This document shows, one piece after another, positions 31,717-50,100 of a stretch of 64,000 nucleotides of DNA; the stretch's first letter is position 1; each line of letters starts with the position of its first letter. This DNA is from Octopus vulgaris (lineage: Eukaryota). Position numbers and translations under genes: made by a program. The stretch is from NCBI GenBank assembly GCA_951406725.2, contig OX597818.1, positions 30,814,001 through 30,878,000 of the forward strand, read 5' to 3'. The notes beneath the pieces are model-generated. The model saw nothing but the letters and a program-made list of their open reading frames with translations, did not search any database and was not told the DNA's origin.

Positions 31717-31790
31717 CTTTTCCATTTCTACATAAACCTCTTCAAAGAATTCATCATAGTGCTGTTGGATCTCAAGCTCTCCCATTTGGA
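31717..31790 (-). CDS. U2AF1: U2AF1 exon 4b (mutually exclusive, 74 nt)
   Basis: tgttttcgtttag / AAG|gtaacc; xQMGELEIQQHYDEFFEEVYVEMEK; same phases as 4a, no stops. Confidence 0.88.
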
Positions 31791-32550: not shown

Positions 32551-32627
32551 CTTGTCCTCTATTTCACAAAATACCTCCTCGAAAAAATCATCAAAATCCT
32601 GTTGCGCTTCAACATCGTCCATTGTCA
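32551..32627 (-). CDS. U2AF1: U2AF1 exon 4a (mutually exclusive, 77 nt)
   Basis: tacttcttttcag / AAG|gtaacc; xTMDDVEAQQDFDDFFEEVFCEIEDK; phase 1 in, phase 0 out. Confidence 0.92.
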
Positions 32628-35410: not shown

Positions 35411-35830
35411 ACTAGTTAGTTAGTTAATTTTTTGGCTCAAAAAGCAAAAAGCAAGGCCATGTAGGGGGACATGGAGTTATGTACAGGGTGGTGTTCATGT
35501 AGAGTCCAGGCCACTTGTGGTCAAGGGAGACTTTGAACCGAGCGGTCGTCGGCATCTTCACCATCTCGTCCGGTAGCTTATTCCACGGATCCGCAACCCG
35601 GACGGAGAAAGCCTCTCTCCTTCGATTGAAATGAAATTGTTGCAGATAGAGCTTTTCGGAATGACCCTGCAGCCGACGCTCTGGAGCAGGAGTGAAGAAC
35701 AGCTCTTTCGAGAGGTTACACTTTCTGCTTATGATGTTGTGAGCAAGAATGAGATCACCATGGCGGCGGCGTTTTTCTAGAGAATAAAGGTCGAGCGTCT
35801 TCAGCCTTTCTTCATAAGACAAATTCTTGA
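35411..35830 (-). mobile_element. CR1-like LINE 3' fragment with (TAAC)n tail
   Basis: SYEERLKTLDLYSLEKRRRHGDLI...FSVRVADPWNKLP. Confidence 0.88.
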
Positions 35831-37469
35831 GACATGGCTATCTAGCTGCACTTTAAGATAAATCAAATTCTTGAATATTACTCATATTCCAGCAATTCAA
35901 GGACGATATATATTCATTTGCAATTATGATTTCATATATAAAAAAACTCCTTTATTCATATGACCAATTTATATCTAATTCTTAGTCTTGCATTTTGTTT
36001 TTAAGATTATGATGTTTAAATAAAAAAAGAAAACAGACTATGTTCATATTTCTTTGTTATTATGTAAAACCTTGAGCACTTCTCATTTATCACAGTATAA
36101 ACATATATATATATACACACATATATATATACATCATATATAACCCCACACAAAATTCTCTCTTAAATACAAACACAGCATGCAAGAAGACAATATTGCA
36201 AACAAAAATAAAAACCAATGAAAAATCCCCCAAAAGTTACATCATAAAAAATCAACTAATTGTCAACATTAAAAAACATAAAACACAATCCTGTGTAATG
36301 CCTTGGATGAATTGTGAAGAAATCAAAGAGAAAATTGTTATAATAAAAGAAGTAGCATAGATACTTTGTATGTAAAGCATGGAAAAGAGGAAACAATTTG
36401 TTGAAACTATAGAAAAATAGGTGTAAAGTTGTTTAAGTAAATACAATACTAGTATATGAAAAAAACAGGAGCTTAGAAATAGTTTAAGTAATATGCTAAG
36501 AAATATTTAAATTAAAAGATAAAGATGTAAAAATAGAAAATAAAAAATTAGCACTTTTTTTTAAAGTAACATTTTGTAAAATCAGGAACATGTAAGTATA
36601 TATTGTAGTTTAAGAACAAAAACTTTGTAATTATTAAATAATTAAAAGTTGACAAAATAGAACTGTCTTATGGGATGGCAGAAGGGAGAGAAAATATATT
36701 AAGGGGGTGAGCTATTTTTAAAATAAAGATTTGAATTAAAAGCAATATTTTAAATTAAGTATTATTCCAGTTCAGATACTTTTTAAAAGAAATAACTTCT
36801 AAAAATAATTTTTCTTATTAATTTCTTTCAAAATGACATAACTCTAAGTAACTGCTAAAAGTTATGGAATAAAAAAAAATCAATTAAAAAAATGTCAACT
36901 AAACAAATTTGCTACACAAATTCTTGCTAGAAGAACTAAAGAATAAGATTTTCATATACACATACACTAATATTAAATTAATTTGACCCAAATTGTACTG
37001 TTTACATTTAAAGAGGTTTTAGATCTTTCAATATTTCAATCGTAAACAGTCTATAAATAATCGAAATATCTGCTTAACTTCCAACACTGGAATTTTATAG
37101 TTTGATATTACATGTGTTCTATGATTTAAGATAGAACATACTTCAATTATAGGCACCCCTTTGTCTCAATATGTCATGCAAACAGCACAAATTGGTCTGG
37201 CTGGCAGGGAGATAGTGGATCATCTAATTATTGGAATAATCAAGAGTAGATAAATATAACCAGCACAAGATGTCTTGTCAAAAGACACATTTTCAGTAAA
37301 AATTTAATTTACATTCCCTGAGTGTACTAATGTATTAATTTATGTATTACTGACTAAATGTTCAAAACACTGTAAAACTAGTGAAGTGATTTGAACATTG
37401 AGTACCTCATTTTTCCTGGACACTCTCCCTTAATGTGGTATTTTGACCCTTTTTTAAAGATGGAGTTAA

Positions 37470-38320: not shown

Positions 38321-38326
38321 CTGTTT
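38321..38326 (-). CDS. U2AF1: Weaker candidate 6-nt U2AF1 microexon (AAACAG)
   Basis: Consensus CAG|gtaagt donor; nearest upstream acceptor (ttag) 6 nt away; proximal pyrimidine tract poor. Confidence 0.3.
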
Positions 38327-40297
38327 CTAATTCCGGTCCAAAATTGAATGTTTAAATGCAGTCGATCAAAAACAAACAAAAATGCCTATTAATTCATTTG
38401 ATTTCATATTTTCCGCAATAAAATTTTAAAAAATACTTATGTAAGAAAATATTAATCTTGGGTATCAATTGAGAGTACATTTCACTAATTAAACAGCTAT
38501 CATGAGCACTGTCATTTCACCAAGGGACAATGAATTTAAAGCTCAAATGGCTGGTGCACTTGCTTTATGAACTGACATAATTTTTTTTAAATCCCTTAAA
38601 AGAAATATCTGATAACTAGGTCTTGTGTATATGACAGCCCCAGTTGATTTTTAACCCTCAACCTGATGGAAAAATCAAATGGTAAGGTTGATATACTGAA
38701 TGGAGTACGTAAAATTTTCTTTATAGAAATTTGCCTTTTAGTTAGGAAAGAAAGCAAAAACCTAGCAGTAATTGTTAGCAACTCTTAAGAAAAGGTAAGA
38801 TAATTGCAAGAAATAAAAATAAAATAAAAAATTTTTTAAAAATAAGAAAAAAACATGCTTACAAGAAAATTTTTCTATGTCAAAAGGAAACAAGTCAGTA
38901 ATTTGAAATGTAAAGTATGCCTATTTTGGATAAACATACAATTTTAACATCAATGTAAAATGTAAACAGTGGTTTACACCAAAGGCTCTTGTCACTGTGG
39001 AAAGAAAAAGCAGGATTATCTAACTAGTTTCTAGTTTTCTTAACCTTAATCAGAGAAAGTATCCATCTGTCCACAAAGAGGATTAGGAGCTTAGAGCTAT
39101 TTATAGTGTATGGAAATTAGGGATTCAATTAAACTGGTCCTGCTCATTTACATAAGAGTTCATGACCTGATATGCTTAATAATGTACTATGCAGCATTTT
39201 AGATAATTTTGTAATGTATACCATTTTGTTTTGATAACCATAATAGTAAAGTAATAACCCTGTTATCAGCATATGCTTTATTAACATCAATCAAACAAAC
39301 CAGTCGAACTGCCTTCTAGTTTCTATACCCTAAAGTTATAAGCAATCACTCTTTATGCGAATAGATGAGTATATTTTCTGTTTATGGTCTAAGACTCAAA
39401 ACTAACCAGATCAATCCCATTTTTTCTGTCTACAGAAAGATCAAAACCAAATGCAACCACTATTTTTTACAGTAATGCTGAAATTGTATGTTTATCAGAA
39501 AGAGGTTTGCCATATATTTCAAATTATCCAAAATACTATGCAGTGCATTATTAAATAATTCATCTAGTGGCTTGTCGTCAGAAAGTGTCCAATTCTAAAC
39601 TATTTTAAATCCTCTTAAAGTTTTTGATTACATTTCACACAACTAACTAGGAAGGGACCTCACTTCACATAAAGTAAAAGATCTCACATTTCCTATTCTT
39701 TTAAGACAAAACTTCTTAAACTGCTAATCTGCCAAAACTTAGAAATAAAGTCATAACCTTTTTAAACTTTTAAAATTTCTGTCACATCAGTTAAAAGTAA
39801 TTTTTCTTAAATGTTTTAAAATGATTCTAAACTTTATTTCTAATTAAGGATTTTTATCAAATATACTATGAAGAATAATATAATTTCCAAAAGAAAATAG
39901 TTTTGAATATTATTTAAAACACTTTTTTCAAATTTTCATTACTCTGTAATTATTTTGATAACGTTTAGATTTACAAAAATAAAATAATGCATTTGTCATA
40001 TAACTTAAGCTGCATTTTAACGAAAATAAGTCAAATTGTAGTCATAAATATAAAAAAAAAAAAAAAAATACAAATCAAATATTTCAAAAAAATAATTTGG
40101 TAGTTTCAGTTTAAGACAGAAAGAAACCTAATTTTACATACTATTATTATTATATACCTATCATTAGGTCTACTAAGCCCCTGTAAAATGATAGTATTTA
40201 CACTAACTGTGCTTATCAGATTAAAGAAAAAAAAGGGCTATTTACTAATTGGCACAAACTTCCATAGGCTTCCAGGATAGGATGATGAATGACTTAC

Positions 40298-40303
40298 CAG
40301 GAA
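40298..40303 (-). CDS. U2AF1: Candidate 6-nt U2AF1 microexon (TTCCTG)
   Basis: Long T tract ending cttttgcag, then TTCCTG, then consensus donor gtaagt; frame-preserving. Confidence 0.6.
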
Positions 40304-40544
40304 CTGCAAAAGAAAAAAAAAAAATTACTTTATGAGGGTTTCGCAATTTTGATTTCTTACACAGACATGATACACTATTAAAATAACATCCATATAAACA
40401 TTATTCAATATATAACTTTTATATAACAGAGTTGAAGGAATACTCTGAACTGAAATTATTTGTATATGGAAATATTTTATAATTAAAGAAAATTGTAGTG
40501 TTGCTATCATAAAATGTAACAAAAGGTTTATCACCAATACTTAC

Positions 40545-40611
40545 TATGAGAGCCATCAGCTGTAAGTGCAGCATTTTGAGGGTTTAGGTATAGATTCTGT
40601 AGCAGTACTGT
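40545..40611 (-). CDS. U2AF1: U2AF1 exon 3
   Basis: tatatag / A|gtaagt; TVLLQNLYLNPQNAALTADGSH; 67 nt, ends in phase 1. Confidence 0.95.
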
Positions 40612-42233: not shown

Positions 42234-43493
42234 CCCTTTCGATACTAACCTGGCTGTAGCCGGCCGAAATTTTTTTTGGTTCATAAGACCGACCCGGCCA
42301 TAGCCAGCCGAGAGTACCCATTGTTATTTAAATGTGAATTTAAGCACAAATCTCGTTAGTACATTTGTGAAAATATGTGATTTCACTTTGTAAATAGTTG
42401 GGTCATAGTATCTGACACTGCTTGACGCGATATCAACTCAGTGAATTTTGTGAGATTTTTTTGGCATCAATTTTTTTTTCAACTTTGAAAATGGATAGAA
42501 GTTTCATGCTATCAAGCAGTGATTCCGATTTTAAAGGTTTTTCAACAGAAAATATAGAGCTATTGAGAAAAAGTATGAATGAGGTAAAAAACACGTGGTG
42601 TACGAGAATGAATAGGATATTTCTGTATCCGAAACCGAAAGCAGCGATTCTGAAGAAACTGAAAGCGGCGATAGCGACAGCAAAGATGATTTTACATTGG
42701 AATGAAGTAAAAACTTTAAGAATGTTTTTATTAGCAATTTTTCTGCGGAGATGGGGTCTATCCAGTCATTCTTCGGAAGCAAAACCATTAGACTTTTACT
42801 TTTTTCAGTATGCTTGTTTGAAGTGATCACTGCAGAAACAAACTGTTACACAGAATGTAAACAAACAGTATATGCCAGGAAAGCCCACGAAATGTGGGAT
42901 CAAAGTTTGGAAAATTTGTGAGGCAAATAGTGGGTACTGCTGTGGATTTAGTTTTTATACAGGGAAAATAATGTTAGTCAGCATGACCTAGGGTACGATG
43001 TGGTCTGGAATTTATCACTTCATACCATAACCATTATTTTTTGACCGATTTTTTTAGTTCAGTCAAACTTGTGGTGGATTCTAGTATTTCAATTTATTTC
43101 ACCTTTATGGTACACCTGTTCTGTTGTGCTTTAAATTCAACTGATGATCTAGTGATGTGCACAATTCTTCTATATAAAAATTTTGTTGCATACCCAATTG
43201 AATATTAGCTGATGATTCATTTTCTATGGTGATGCTTAAACAAAATTTTAATATTTTTACCTTTTGCTCAGTTTACCCGGATTTACCTGTAATTAGAGTC
43301 ACTTTGAGACAAAAGTTATGCAATAGAATTGATTAAGAACCCTTTAATTACGTTCCAAACATCACATTAATATGTTGACAAATAATAAAGTTACAGTTGT
43401 TTAATGAAACTAGTCTAAATTCATGATTATTTTAGAATTTAATTGAAACTCATGAGGGGGTGTATTTTGGTCAGAAATATAGTAACGAAAGGG
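42234..43493 (+). mobile_element. Internally deleted piggyBac transposon (1260 bp) nested in a SINE
   Basis: TTAA TSDs at 42230-42233 and 43494-43497; CCC..GGG ends; remnants YMPGKPTKCGIKVWKICEANSGYC and LGYDVV; SINE A sequence resumes after the right TTAA. Confidence 0.9.
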
Positions 43494-43616: not shown

Positions 43617-43704
43617 CTGACTGAAAGTGGGTTTGTTGTGCAGGCGAGAACATCTTTCTCCATGCCTACAAGCTCCAATTTTGAAGTAAAAGGAACAATT
43701 AACC
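43617..43704 (-). CDS. U2AF1: U2AF1 exon 2 (zinc finger 1)
   Basis: ttttaag / CAG|gtatgt; (K)[33 protein letters not shown] finger; 88 nt. Confidence 0.97.
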
Positions 43705-47114: not shown

Positions 47115-47158
47115 TTGTCCTTTTCTGTGCCAAAAATTGACGCAAGATACTCAGCCAT
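47115..47158 (-). CDS. U2AF1: U2AF1 (U2AF35) coding exon 1
   Basis: ATG at 47158; MAEYLASIFGTEKD-AA|gtaatt; 44 nt. Confidence 0.97.
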
Positions 47159-50100
47159 CTTCCCAACGTCTTCAGATGAGCTGAATTGTATTATGGGAAA
47201 ATATTTTGACAATTTTTGTTATGTCTTTTCTCAAACAAACATTTTTACTTTAATATAAACGGGATTAAATTTAAAATCTAAAATCAGATAAAGAATAATT
47301 TTCTAAAACGTACTTTTATGAAATAAATATCATCGGCTAAACCCGTAAATTAATGTTGATTAGCAAAGGGAAGTAATGCGCTAGCTTTTAGTAACAGTTT
47401 TATGTTAATTAAAAAAAAGAGGCTTTTATTAACGAAGTCACTTTAAGCTCATTAGAATAATTACTTTGGTGTATTACTACTTTGAGATTAAATCCTGATG
47501 CAGTTAACTTTGCCTTGCTTTTCCTTCATTCGGGCGCAATAAATAATTTTAGTACTATAATGGGTCTGTGATAACGTTTTCATATTTCGGCAAAAAAATT
47601 TCATCGAGCTTACTTTAACTACCATTAACCCTTGAACGGTGGGAAAGGGTTGCATGAATGCGTGTGCTAAACGGGCAAAAAATTAAAAAAAAAATAAAAG
47701 AATATTTCTATTAATAAAAAATTTTCAAAATATTTATTTTTACTTTAAAAGAGTACAAAAGCTATAATCTCTTGTACATTAAATTTACAATCTCCATATC
47801 GAAAAGTGCCTTAAAATATTCACTTTCTTTTGGTGATTGCTATATACATGTACAATTTTTGAAACATTCGCCGTTCTAGGGTTAAGAAGAGCCAGAAGAG
47901 ATCTAAATAGGATCTCGTTAAATAAAATCCTTTCGGTAATATACCAATTGGATTGACATAGTGGCAACGTCTTGTTTTTGCGAGGAATCGAGAACTGCTT
48001 TCTCCAAACGTGCACCTACTGCATTTAAGAAAAACACGAAGAGAATAATTTTGTGACTTCAATTGGCACAAATAAATTTTATCTTCGGTGTCACAGGTCT
48101 GGTAATAATACAACAAAATCCCTCAAATCTCTATGAATGCAATGACATGCAATATCTGAAGATTTCTCATAGCAACCAGATTGATATGCTTAACTACAAT
48201 TTAGAGCATATTTGTCACCCTCAGCTTCAGCAAAGCTTTCGATGTATGGCATGCGAATCTCTTATCTAAATCAATGTGTTTTATCCGTCTCTCATCTCTC
48301 GGATCAGTAGCATCTCTATCATATCGCAGTACTGTCGCATGTATTTTTACGTTTCGAGTTTAAATTCCGCCGAGGTCACCTTTGCCTTTCATTCTTTCGG
48401 GGTCGATAAAATAAGTACCAGTCGAGCACTGGGTCGATGTAATCGACTTACTCCAGCCCACGAAATTACTGGTCTTGTTCCAAAATGGGAAACTAATATC
48501 ATGGTGTCAATGGAGACCGTTCTCTCCCTCTATCAATTTCGGTGTGTCCCAGAATTTTATACTCACTGTATTCTCTCTATACATTAATGATGACAATACT
48601 TCATGCCTCCCTAACATTCTCCATCTATATATCACCCCGGGCTCGCAACCAAGAAACTTCATGCCAAACTCACAATGACACCCTGAACAGAGATCCCGAA
48701 AGCAACCCTCCAGTGAGGATACAGCAAACTTGTCTCTTTCAACGGGAAAATACAAACGCTAGTCGTATCAAGAGAGCATCATTACATCACATCCTCTCAA
48801 TCATGAGTAACACTCAAATAGAACTTTCGAAGACTGCTTGAGTGTTTCTTATGACTGAGACTCAACAGTTAGGTGTCTCATTACCGTTGGGGGACCTCTT
48901 TTGGTAAAAAACACTCCTTAACAGCGCAGAAGATACTTCAATCCCCAAATAGCAGTCAATTTGCGACAAAGTTGATGTTAGGCCTACAATAGATTCCTGC
49001 GCTCACACTCATACACACATCCTTGACCAAATCTAGAAAAGGGTCACCCGACTGACTGGCATAAAGTCACTTAGAAACACATTCCTATCACTATGTCACA
49101 GGCGCTCTTACTATCGTTCTTTCTGTTTTTCTACCTTTACTACTGGGTAGGCTCCACTCCAGCACTCACATTCTACTCGTCATTTTCCCTCATCCCCCTT
49201 GTTATGTCTAATCCCCATTCCACGCACTAAACACAATGTTCAGTCTTTCTTTCCAGAACGTCGGTCTTTCTGGATCCTTTCCAGCAGGTGTTGTCTTATT
49301 TGAGTTCAAGAGAAACGATAACGACATTTTTCAATGTTGTGACTTTATTTTCATTTAGCGAAATTTACAACATAAAGGCATTATATAAAGTTGTCCATGA
49401 TACGAAACCTCGACTATTTAATATTATTTGCTTCCCTTTCTGTTTTACGTGATACTTTCCTATTACGTGATAATGATACCGTTATAATTTGTTGTTCAGG
49501 AGTGGCAAGCATACCTGACACACACCAAACAACCCCATTCTTAATTTCCCTCTACTAAAAAAATAAGCACAGCGAATAAGATACATAGAAAAAAAACGAT
49601 AAGAAGCTCAAGAATTAAAATGGATTATAATAAATTTGACAGCTACACTTGTGTCCTCTTGCAACTTTTATTTTCTTGGAACTTCCAAAAAATGCCCATT
49701 TCCTAAAATTTTTTTGCTGAGATAAGGGTGTAGATAATGATTATGTAAGTAAAATGTAGGAATAGAGAAAATTTTCATTATCGAACCATTCTTCCCCTCC
49801 CCCTCAGACATCGTTATCAATTAATTTCCGTAACTAGCATTTTTCACTTTCTAATTTATTTTTTTCAGATATATATGGTTAAAACATACGTTCCCTTTAC
49901 TTAAAAAAAAAAGTCATTCGAGAATGTGTTTTAAAGAGAGTGACAAAGAAACAAAGTTGAAAGTGGGTGAGAATGATCCCTGATCAACACCGTCGAAAAC
50001 ATATTTCTGCAAATTTTTATTTAAAAAAATGTATTTTTGAGAAAGATATGAAGAAACAGAGTCAGGAGAATAGGGGCGCCAAACTATAGTCATGGCATAC

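Follow-up and report, generated by a model that had tools for sequence, protein, structure and literature searches.

A 6-nucleotide exon, probably included by default, and a second microexon in Octopus U2AF1

The U2AF1 locus and its small exons

The window analyzed here, a 64-kb stretch of Octopus vulgaris DNA, carries on its minus strand the gene for U2AF1, the protein that reads the AG of 3' splice sites, and its coding exons were placed by joining and translating them in a script (Table 1). The product has the architecture of U2AF35, with two CCCH fingers around a UHM and an RS tail (Pfam zf-CCCH in two stretches, and RRM_1). This identity is borne out by PDB matches found by sequence (4YH8, 7C06-7C08, and 1JMT) and by the fold of the octopus U2AF1 model, which matches yeast U2AF1 chains at TM 0.87-0.95. 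Exons 4a and 4b are homologous tandem exons that behave as a mutually exclusive pair, inclusion of both leading to a stop after 114 residues and of neither to a stop after 70. Separate 4a and 4b isoforms occur in records of Octopus, Patella, Gigantopelta, Mercenaria, and Crassostrea. The pair, with the same 77- and 74-nt lengths, is common to octopus, bivalves, and gastropods, and recurs in two metagenomic loci (L001 and L004). Just upstream of 4b, the intron translates into a peptide resembling that of P0129, a cephalopod-type record at greater distance; for the intron before exon 2, no such resemblance was seen (P0132).

Table 1. Features of U2AF1 in the window (positions counted from its first letter)
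Feature	Position	Strand	Description
Exon 1, coding part	47115..47158	minus	44 nt
Exon 2	43617..43704	minus	88 nt; first CCCH finger
Exon 3	40545..40611	minus	67 nt; first UHM strand and loop
Microexon 1 acceptor region	40304..40335	minus	Branch-point-like pentamer at about -30, U tract, YAG
Microexon 1	40298..40303	minus	6 nt, TTCCTG; exact RefSeq product matches
Microexon 1 proximal donor	40292..40297	minus	GTAAGT; 8/9 positions match the U1-type consensus
58-nt extended microexon 1	40246..40303	minus	Donor 52 nt downstream, weaker (5/9); frame-shifting
Microexon 2 acceptor region	38327..38392	minus	AG-free zone of 57 nt; branch-like pentamers at -63 and -40
Microexon 2	38321..38326	minus	6 nt; adds E-T; with microexon 1 gives I-P-E-T-V
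Exon 4a	32551..32627	minus	77 nt; encodes helix A; mutually exclusive with 4b
Exon 4b	31717..31790	minus	74 nt; mutually exclusive with 4a
Exon 5	27881..27952	minus	72 nt
Exon 6	26482..26615	minus	134 nt
Exon 7	26299..26397	minus	99 nt
Exon 8, coding part	26018..26198	minus	RS tail and stop

Elsewhere in the window, exon-like frames at about 15800-25300 on the plus strand converge on U2AF1 tail-to-tail, ending about 0.7 kb from its stop codon. By their motifs they resemble a persulfide dioxygenase (ETHE1-like); the one piece tested had no Pfam hit. The segments 16447-17397 (plus), 35424-35837 (minus), 42416-42991, and 48200-48850 look like remnants of retroelements or DNA transposons, with no Pfam hit in the three pieces tested. 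In all, five intronic or neighboring ORFs of the window had no Pfam match. A TA-rich simple repeat of about 2 kb lies at about 18100-20200 (GC 12.6% in 18001-20000).

An earlier note, made from the letters alone, had singled out a T tract followed by cttttgcag, TTCCTG, and gtaagt on the minus strand as a candidate 6-nt exon (microexon 1) located 241 nt downstream of exon 3. The letters lie where it placed them, the U-rich tract and acceptor running from about 40325 to 40304, and the coordinates give the same 241-nt intron. Translation in the script also bore out the predicted change of protein, with the frame kept and GSH-M-T (with 4a) or GSH-I-Q (with 4b) turned into GSH-I-P-V-T or GSH-I-P-V-Q. 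The acceptor has pyrimidines at 16 of the 17 proximal positions, the highest count among ten acceptors measured, and an AG-free zone of 22 nt. One UGC lies inside it (-5) and another upstream of the branch-like site (-42), with none other between -30 and the acceptor. On its sense strand, the 21-kb gene contains GTAAGT four times, each time as a donor (exon 3, exon 7, and the two microexons). Under a strict rule, set post hoc (17 AG-free nt with at least 15 pyrimidines, YAG, 3-27 nt, GTRAG), microexon 1 is the sole match in the window, both strands included. Of 100 dinucleotide shuffles of the gene, 7 contained one or more matches (mean, 0.08), and Markov shuffles scored for a GTAAGT donor had means of 0.00-0.03. 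A laxer rule found three matches in the gene against 0.76-0.91 expected from shuffles. Taken alone, the splice motif of microexon 1 is suggestive but no proof; the stronger evidence is at the protein level.

The second small exon, microexon 2, has a donor that fits the consensus at 9 of 9 positions. Its acceptor has only 8 of 17 proximal pyrimidines, the lowest of the 10 acceptors, with a U tract at about -56 and a UGC at -34. Both microexons, at 6 nt between canonical AG and GT, fall within the 3-27 nt of the microexon class. The pattern YAG-(3n)-G/GTAAGT has two sites in the gene, which are the two microexons, and at least two sites appeared in 4 of 200 shuffles.

Spliced forms in Octopus and other cephalopods

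With exon 6 as the query, 1,742 relatives were retrieved, of which 120 are listed, and cephalopod members were named through cluster look-ups. Window exons joined in the script agree with several of these proteins over their full length. Microexon 1 with 4a is identical to P0005 (Octopus sinensis X3, XP_029636792.1), and microexon 1 with 4b to P0127 (O. sinensis X4, XP_029636793.1). The form that skips the microexons and uses 4b is identical to P0006 (Octopus bimaculoides XP_052824283.1), the only record of a putative skip form; no database protein compared with the joined exons combined skipping with 4a. EukProt copies of the earlier O. bimaculoides proteins XP_014773174.1, XP_014773175.1, and XP_014773176.1 have the sequences of O. 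sinensis X2, X3, and X4. RefSeq XP models are automated predictions. Within the 7,917-nt intron, 12 hexamers could encode I-P, and the one flanked by AG and GT is microexon 1.

Twelve cephalopod-type proteins span the junction, and I-P is present in 11 of them, five from named Octopus species and six derived from contigs. The latter (P0007, P0128, P0130, P0131, P0132, and P0146; JGI, Logan, and MERC assemblies only) all carry I-P-V-Q, and all do so without microexon 2. P0128 is present on 7 contigs, the six proteins need not be independent, and P0146, whose tail looks foreign, may be chimeric. Assembled contigs display dominant forms only, and some could come from nerve-rich tissue. A short contig with an ORF running uninterrupted through exons 3-5 points to spliced RNA, and it is through such ORFs (6 of 6) and the exact RefSeq matches that microexon 1 is placed, indirectly, in spliced mRNA. 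We regard it as almost certain that microexon 1 is a real exon, one already in automated annotation.

The contig-derived proteins also bear on conservation in other cephalopods, a check that the earlier note had put forward for the flanks and that holds, for the residues of the exon, at the protein level. Five of the six have RS tails with 3-6 changes from Octopus, and Argonauta has 1. Since these tails are more diverged than that of Argonauta, microexon 1 probably predates the split of Octopus and Argonauta and probably reaches beyond octopods, although no named squid or cuttlefish record carrying I-P was among the relatives retrieved. I-P was absent from every named bivalve, gastropod, and chiton record fetched, an absence that a gain of microexon 1 in cephalopods would fit. 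A metagenome scan with the end of exon 3 returned four loci, none of cephalopod type. Two (L001 and L004) are genomic with the mollusc layout of exon 3, 4a, and 4b, each with 2 weak microexon-like candidates (9-12 of 17 pyrimidines), and two (L002 and L003) come from spliced sequence and are longer by one residue.

The same junction varies in other molluscs. Crassostrea/Magallana proteins P0043-P0057 have I-Q or I-V-Q (+3 nt, as from NAGNAG or a 3-nt exon) and also S-K-F-Q or S-K-L-I (+6 nt, consistent with a donor shifted by 6 nt), and Biomphalaria P0173 and P0174 have longer insertions. In molluscs, the exon 3-4 junction of U2AF1 may be where small splice variants arise repeatedly. In records P0091 and P0092 of Lineus longissimus, the isoforms differ within the segment encoded by exon 3; this hints at a duplication of exon 3, perhaps convergent with that of vertebrates.

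A view that such exons are often missed by annotation is only partly upheld. The later O. bimaculoides records seen skip microexon 1 or start downstream of it, but RefSeq O. sinensis and the 2015-series O. bimaculoides have it. The full-length microexon forms found in earlier accession versions do not appear in these later RefSeq records (P0004, P0006, and P0125). A further model, O. vulgaris CAI9722651.1 (P0168), joins microexon 1 to a 98-nt segment (37828-37731), then to a 4-nt piece whose only AG/GT-flanked fit is 33725-33722 (minus strand), and then to exon 4a. The 98-nt segment lies within a 137-codon open frame with no Pfam match and may be a modeling artifact or a rare exonization.

Microexon 1 also occurs in an extended, 58-nt form, an exact match to O. 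sinensis X5 (P0126, XP_036359213.1) that agrees with O. bimaculoides X2 (P0004) from residue 6 on. Its stop falls at codon 92, in exon 4, 360-363 nt upstream of the last junction, as in a poison form, and the transcript is probably a target of NMD. The peptide read from the 52 intronic bases is identical between O. sinensis and O. bimaculoides, and so are 20 codons translated from the intron that precedes 4a; this identity may reflect conserved flanks.

The proteins that include microexon 2 always include microexon 1 as well. Both microexons with 4a give P0134 (O. sinensis X1, XP_036359212.1) and with 4b give P0008 (O. sinensis X2, XP_029636791.1), each exactly; X1 and X2 read G-S-H-I-P-E-T-V at the junction. 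Of 14 hexamers coding for E-T, one is flanked by AG and GT, namely microexon 2, and the intron holds no single 12-nt exon encoding I-P-E-T. Its presence in mRNA is predicted by the RefSeq models of two Octopus species, and its occurrence in 2 of the 12 spanning sequences and none of the six contig-derived proteins points to a minor form. With two 6-nt exons and a choice of 4a or 4b, up to eight in-frame combinations can be made, five of which were matched to database proteins. The earlier count of at least four isoforms was right in that microexon 1 combines with both 4a and 4b, but its list was incomplete, lacking microexon 2 and the 58-nt form.

AlphaFold modeled the skip isoform (122 sequences) at a mean pLDDT of 81.9, with a short helix at 55-58 followed by coil at 59-70 and by helix A at 71-90. 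The microexons insert at codon 67, in the coil and about four residues before UHM helix A, in agreement with their proposed position just before that helix. A model with both microexons and 4b (mean pLDDT, 49.5) is too poor for a comparison of isoforms; it does place residues 67-71 in coil of low confidence, ahead of a helix at 75-94. Loop length ranged from 17 to 64 in the 87 measurable of 150 U2AF1-family representatives, with a mode of 29 (32 of 87) and lengths of 30-32 in 24 of 87; the octopus loop is 29, 31, or 33 by isoform, and fission yeast aligns with a segment 7 residues shorter. Given this natural variation, insertions of two and four residues are probably tolerated by the loop, with a small predicted effect on the fold. 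Human U2AF35a and U2AF35b differ here too, at seven residues, of which some are "in or close to" helix A, and human residues up to 65-66 are so placed (PMC5224494, PMC4402522); the inserted proline may therefore contact the first turn of the helix region and have more effect than assumed. The available text of PMC5113200 gives no residue limits for helix A. The two human isoforms have different splice-site preferences and interactomes (PMC6821156).

Default, constitutive, or neural use of microexon 1

We consider it probable that microexon 1 is a genuine cephalopod U2AF1 exon included by default in most transcripts, and it is very likely that its use is default or constitutive rather than neural. 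What we establish are coordinates, frames, exact agreement with database proteins, and presence in contig ORFs; inclusion level, breadth of tissues, NMD, and function are inferred. The compact acceptor is of the kind expected for an exon that can do without a dedicated enhancer, in keeping with the 11 of 12 spanning sequences that include it. Flanked by very strong splice sites and preceded by an intron of only 241 nt, it could be spliced without a neural enhancer, adding two residues (net P-V) to a length-tolerant loop before UHM helix A. In the splicing cassette that we propose, the acceptor of microexon 1 would initially pair with either the near donor (6 nt, in frame) or the far donor (58 nt). 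The premature stop of the 58-nt form would likely bring about NMD and might tune the dose of U2AF1. Microexon 2, with its weak acceptor, would be added in a minority of transcripts, and the last step would be the choice of one duplicated exon, 4a or 4b.

The same preponderance of inclusion could mean that microexon 1 is strictly constitutive in coleoid cephalopods, a fixed two-residue extension of the loop, and that the lone skip protein reflects failed alignment of a 6-nt exon. That record is one of the later O. bimaculoides entries, among which XP_014773175 went from a full I-P-V-T protein (.1) to an N-truncated one (.2), and the lack of a skip protein with 4a among database matches points the same way. 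Insect-type U2AF1 likewise has the same +2 length, apparently fixed (LVANVS or LVVANVS in 44 of the best 120 hits, Drosophila included). Nevertheless, the RefSeq skip model P0006 exists, and the 58-nt form in two species speaks for a variable choice of donor by microexon 1. We hold strict constitutive use to be unlikely. Should microexon 1 be a chance splice-like motif, I-P would have to come from another junction or from an annotation error. The laxer rule does yield nearly one such site per gene-length shuffle, but microexon 1 is the only AG/GT-flanked I-P site in the intron, shifts of the neighboring donor or acceptors by 6 nt give other residues, I-P-E-T has no 12-nt exon to come from, and contiguous ORFs on assembled contigs carry I-P. 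We find a chance motif scarcely credible.

The earlier note had assigned microexon 1, by inference, to the neural SRRM/eMIC program, a reading for which we see no support. A Srrm234/eMIC-dependent exon skipped outside the nervous system would fit the size of 6 nt and the preservation of frame, UGC is not strictly required for a response to SRRM4 (bioRxiv 10.1101/2024.09.17.613571), and the including contigs could stem from nerve-rich tissue. Against this stand inclusion in all six contig-derived proteins and an acceptor that is strong and compact, where eMIC acceptors are extremely weak with long AG-free zones (PMC8797185). The acceptor of microexon 1 lacks the eMIC layout of weak acceptor, set-back pyrimidine tract, and long AG-free zone, and the exon should therefore not be filed as an eMIC-type neural microexon; we judge such a neural, eMIC-dependent role for it unlikely. 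Microexon 2 does have that layout, UGC included. The match is only modest, because UCUC is absent (none in 94 nt upstream) and long AG-free zones are also found at exon 5 (87 nt) and exon 4b (54 nt); its flanking introns, of about 2.0 and 5.7 kb, depart from the UCUC-rich tracts and short introns of fly eMIC exons as well. From its splice signals, microexon 2 is a better candidate than microexon 1 for nerve-specific use.

U2AF1 interacts with the eMIC domain, and its knockdown raises inclusion of eMIC exons in fly and human cells (PMC8797185). A partner that both binds the eMIC domain and represses eMIC exons would make a neural microexon inside U2AF1 of interest. We speculate that cephalopod U2AF1 is a tiered microexon cassette in which microexon 2 is neural and eMIC dependent, so that neurons would make a U2AF1 with a loop four residues longer before helix A while the 58-nt form would set its dose, both closing a feedback loop on the cephalopod neural microexon program; as a whole, this scheme is unlikely. 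If microexon 2 is neural, the microexon machinery would here regulate its own core cofactor, a compact example from an animal whose brain enlarged independently. If microexon 1 is always on, it is a detail of annotation, with the lesson that exons of 6 nt can come and go from one release of the gene models to the next. Slight differences between mammalian U2AF1 isoforms in the same loop and helix alter splice-site choice (PMC6821156; PMC4402522). Cephalopods appear to have built their own U2AF1 isoform system, which combines a duplicated exon 4 with a pair of 6-nt exons and a form that is likely subject to NMD. What this analysis adds to the earlier note is microexon 2 and the 58-nt form, microexon 1 itself being already annotated by a pipeline.

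Comparison with known systems

The closest counterparts are the RefSeq predictions for the O. sinensis U2AF 35-kDa subunit, whose X1-X5 proteins are identical to the five corresponding forms of the window. X1-X5 are automated predictions, and we found no paper that describes these as microexons or measures them. Our literature search, with subscription papers outside its reach, found no paper on cephalopod U2AF1 microexons and no match for U2AF35, cephalopod, and alternative splicing together. The main text available for a study of eight O. bimaculoides tissues (bioRxiv 10.64898/2026.09.05.749416) does not contain "U2AF"; its supplements could list these exons. An insect microexon at the same junction was also considered, without support from the protein records: among the best 120 hits, lengths were stable by type (LVANVS, 42; LANVT, 54; LANVS, 12; others, 12), with no isoform pairs.

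In vertebrate U2AF1, the mutually exclusive exons 3 and Ab give U2AF35a and U2AF35b, and double inclusion or skipping leads to NMD (PMC5224494). Octopus 4a and 4b alter the same part of the UHM (the loop and helix A), and use of both or neither likewise brings a premature stop; the isoform differences are functional in mammals (PMC5224494, PMC6821156, PMC4402522). The duplicated exon differs, being exon 3 in vertebrates and the next exon in molluscs, and the available text of the same three papers makes no mention of a vertebrate microexon at this junction.

In fly eMIC exons the acceptor is extremely weak and has a UGC nearby, the AG-free zone is long, and tracts rich in UCUC occur (PMC8797185). 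In human SRRM3/4 microexons the pyrimidine tract is set back from the AG, and UGC, present in 74-79%, is helpful but not essential (bioRxiv 10.1101/2024.09.17.613571). Like the octopus pair, eMIC and SRRM3-SRRM4 microexons are 3-27 nt long, preserve the frame, and lie in a loop of a protein-interaction domain. With microexon 2 they share a weak proximal acceptor, a distal U tract, UGC, and a long AG-free zone, although microexon 2 lacks the UCUC repeats and short flanking introns of the fly exons. Microexon 1 departs from them in its strong compact acceptor and apparent default inclusion.

Poison or NMD-coupled splicing of splicing-factor genes is a general class (for U2AF1, see PMC5224494). 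The octopus 58-nt form shares with it a premature stop well upstream of the last junction, but would arise from an alternative donor on a microexon and not from a separate cassette, its NMD and autoregulation being putative. Microexon 1 resembles other frame-preserving microexons in the loops of interaction domains and is a member of the microexon class.
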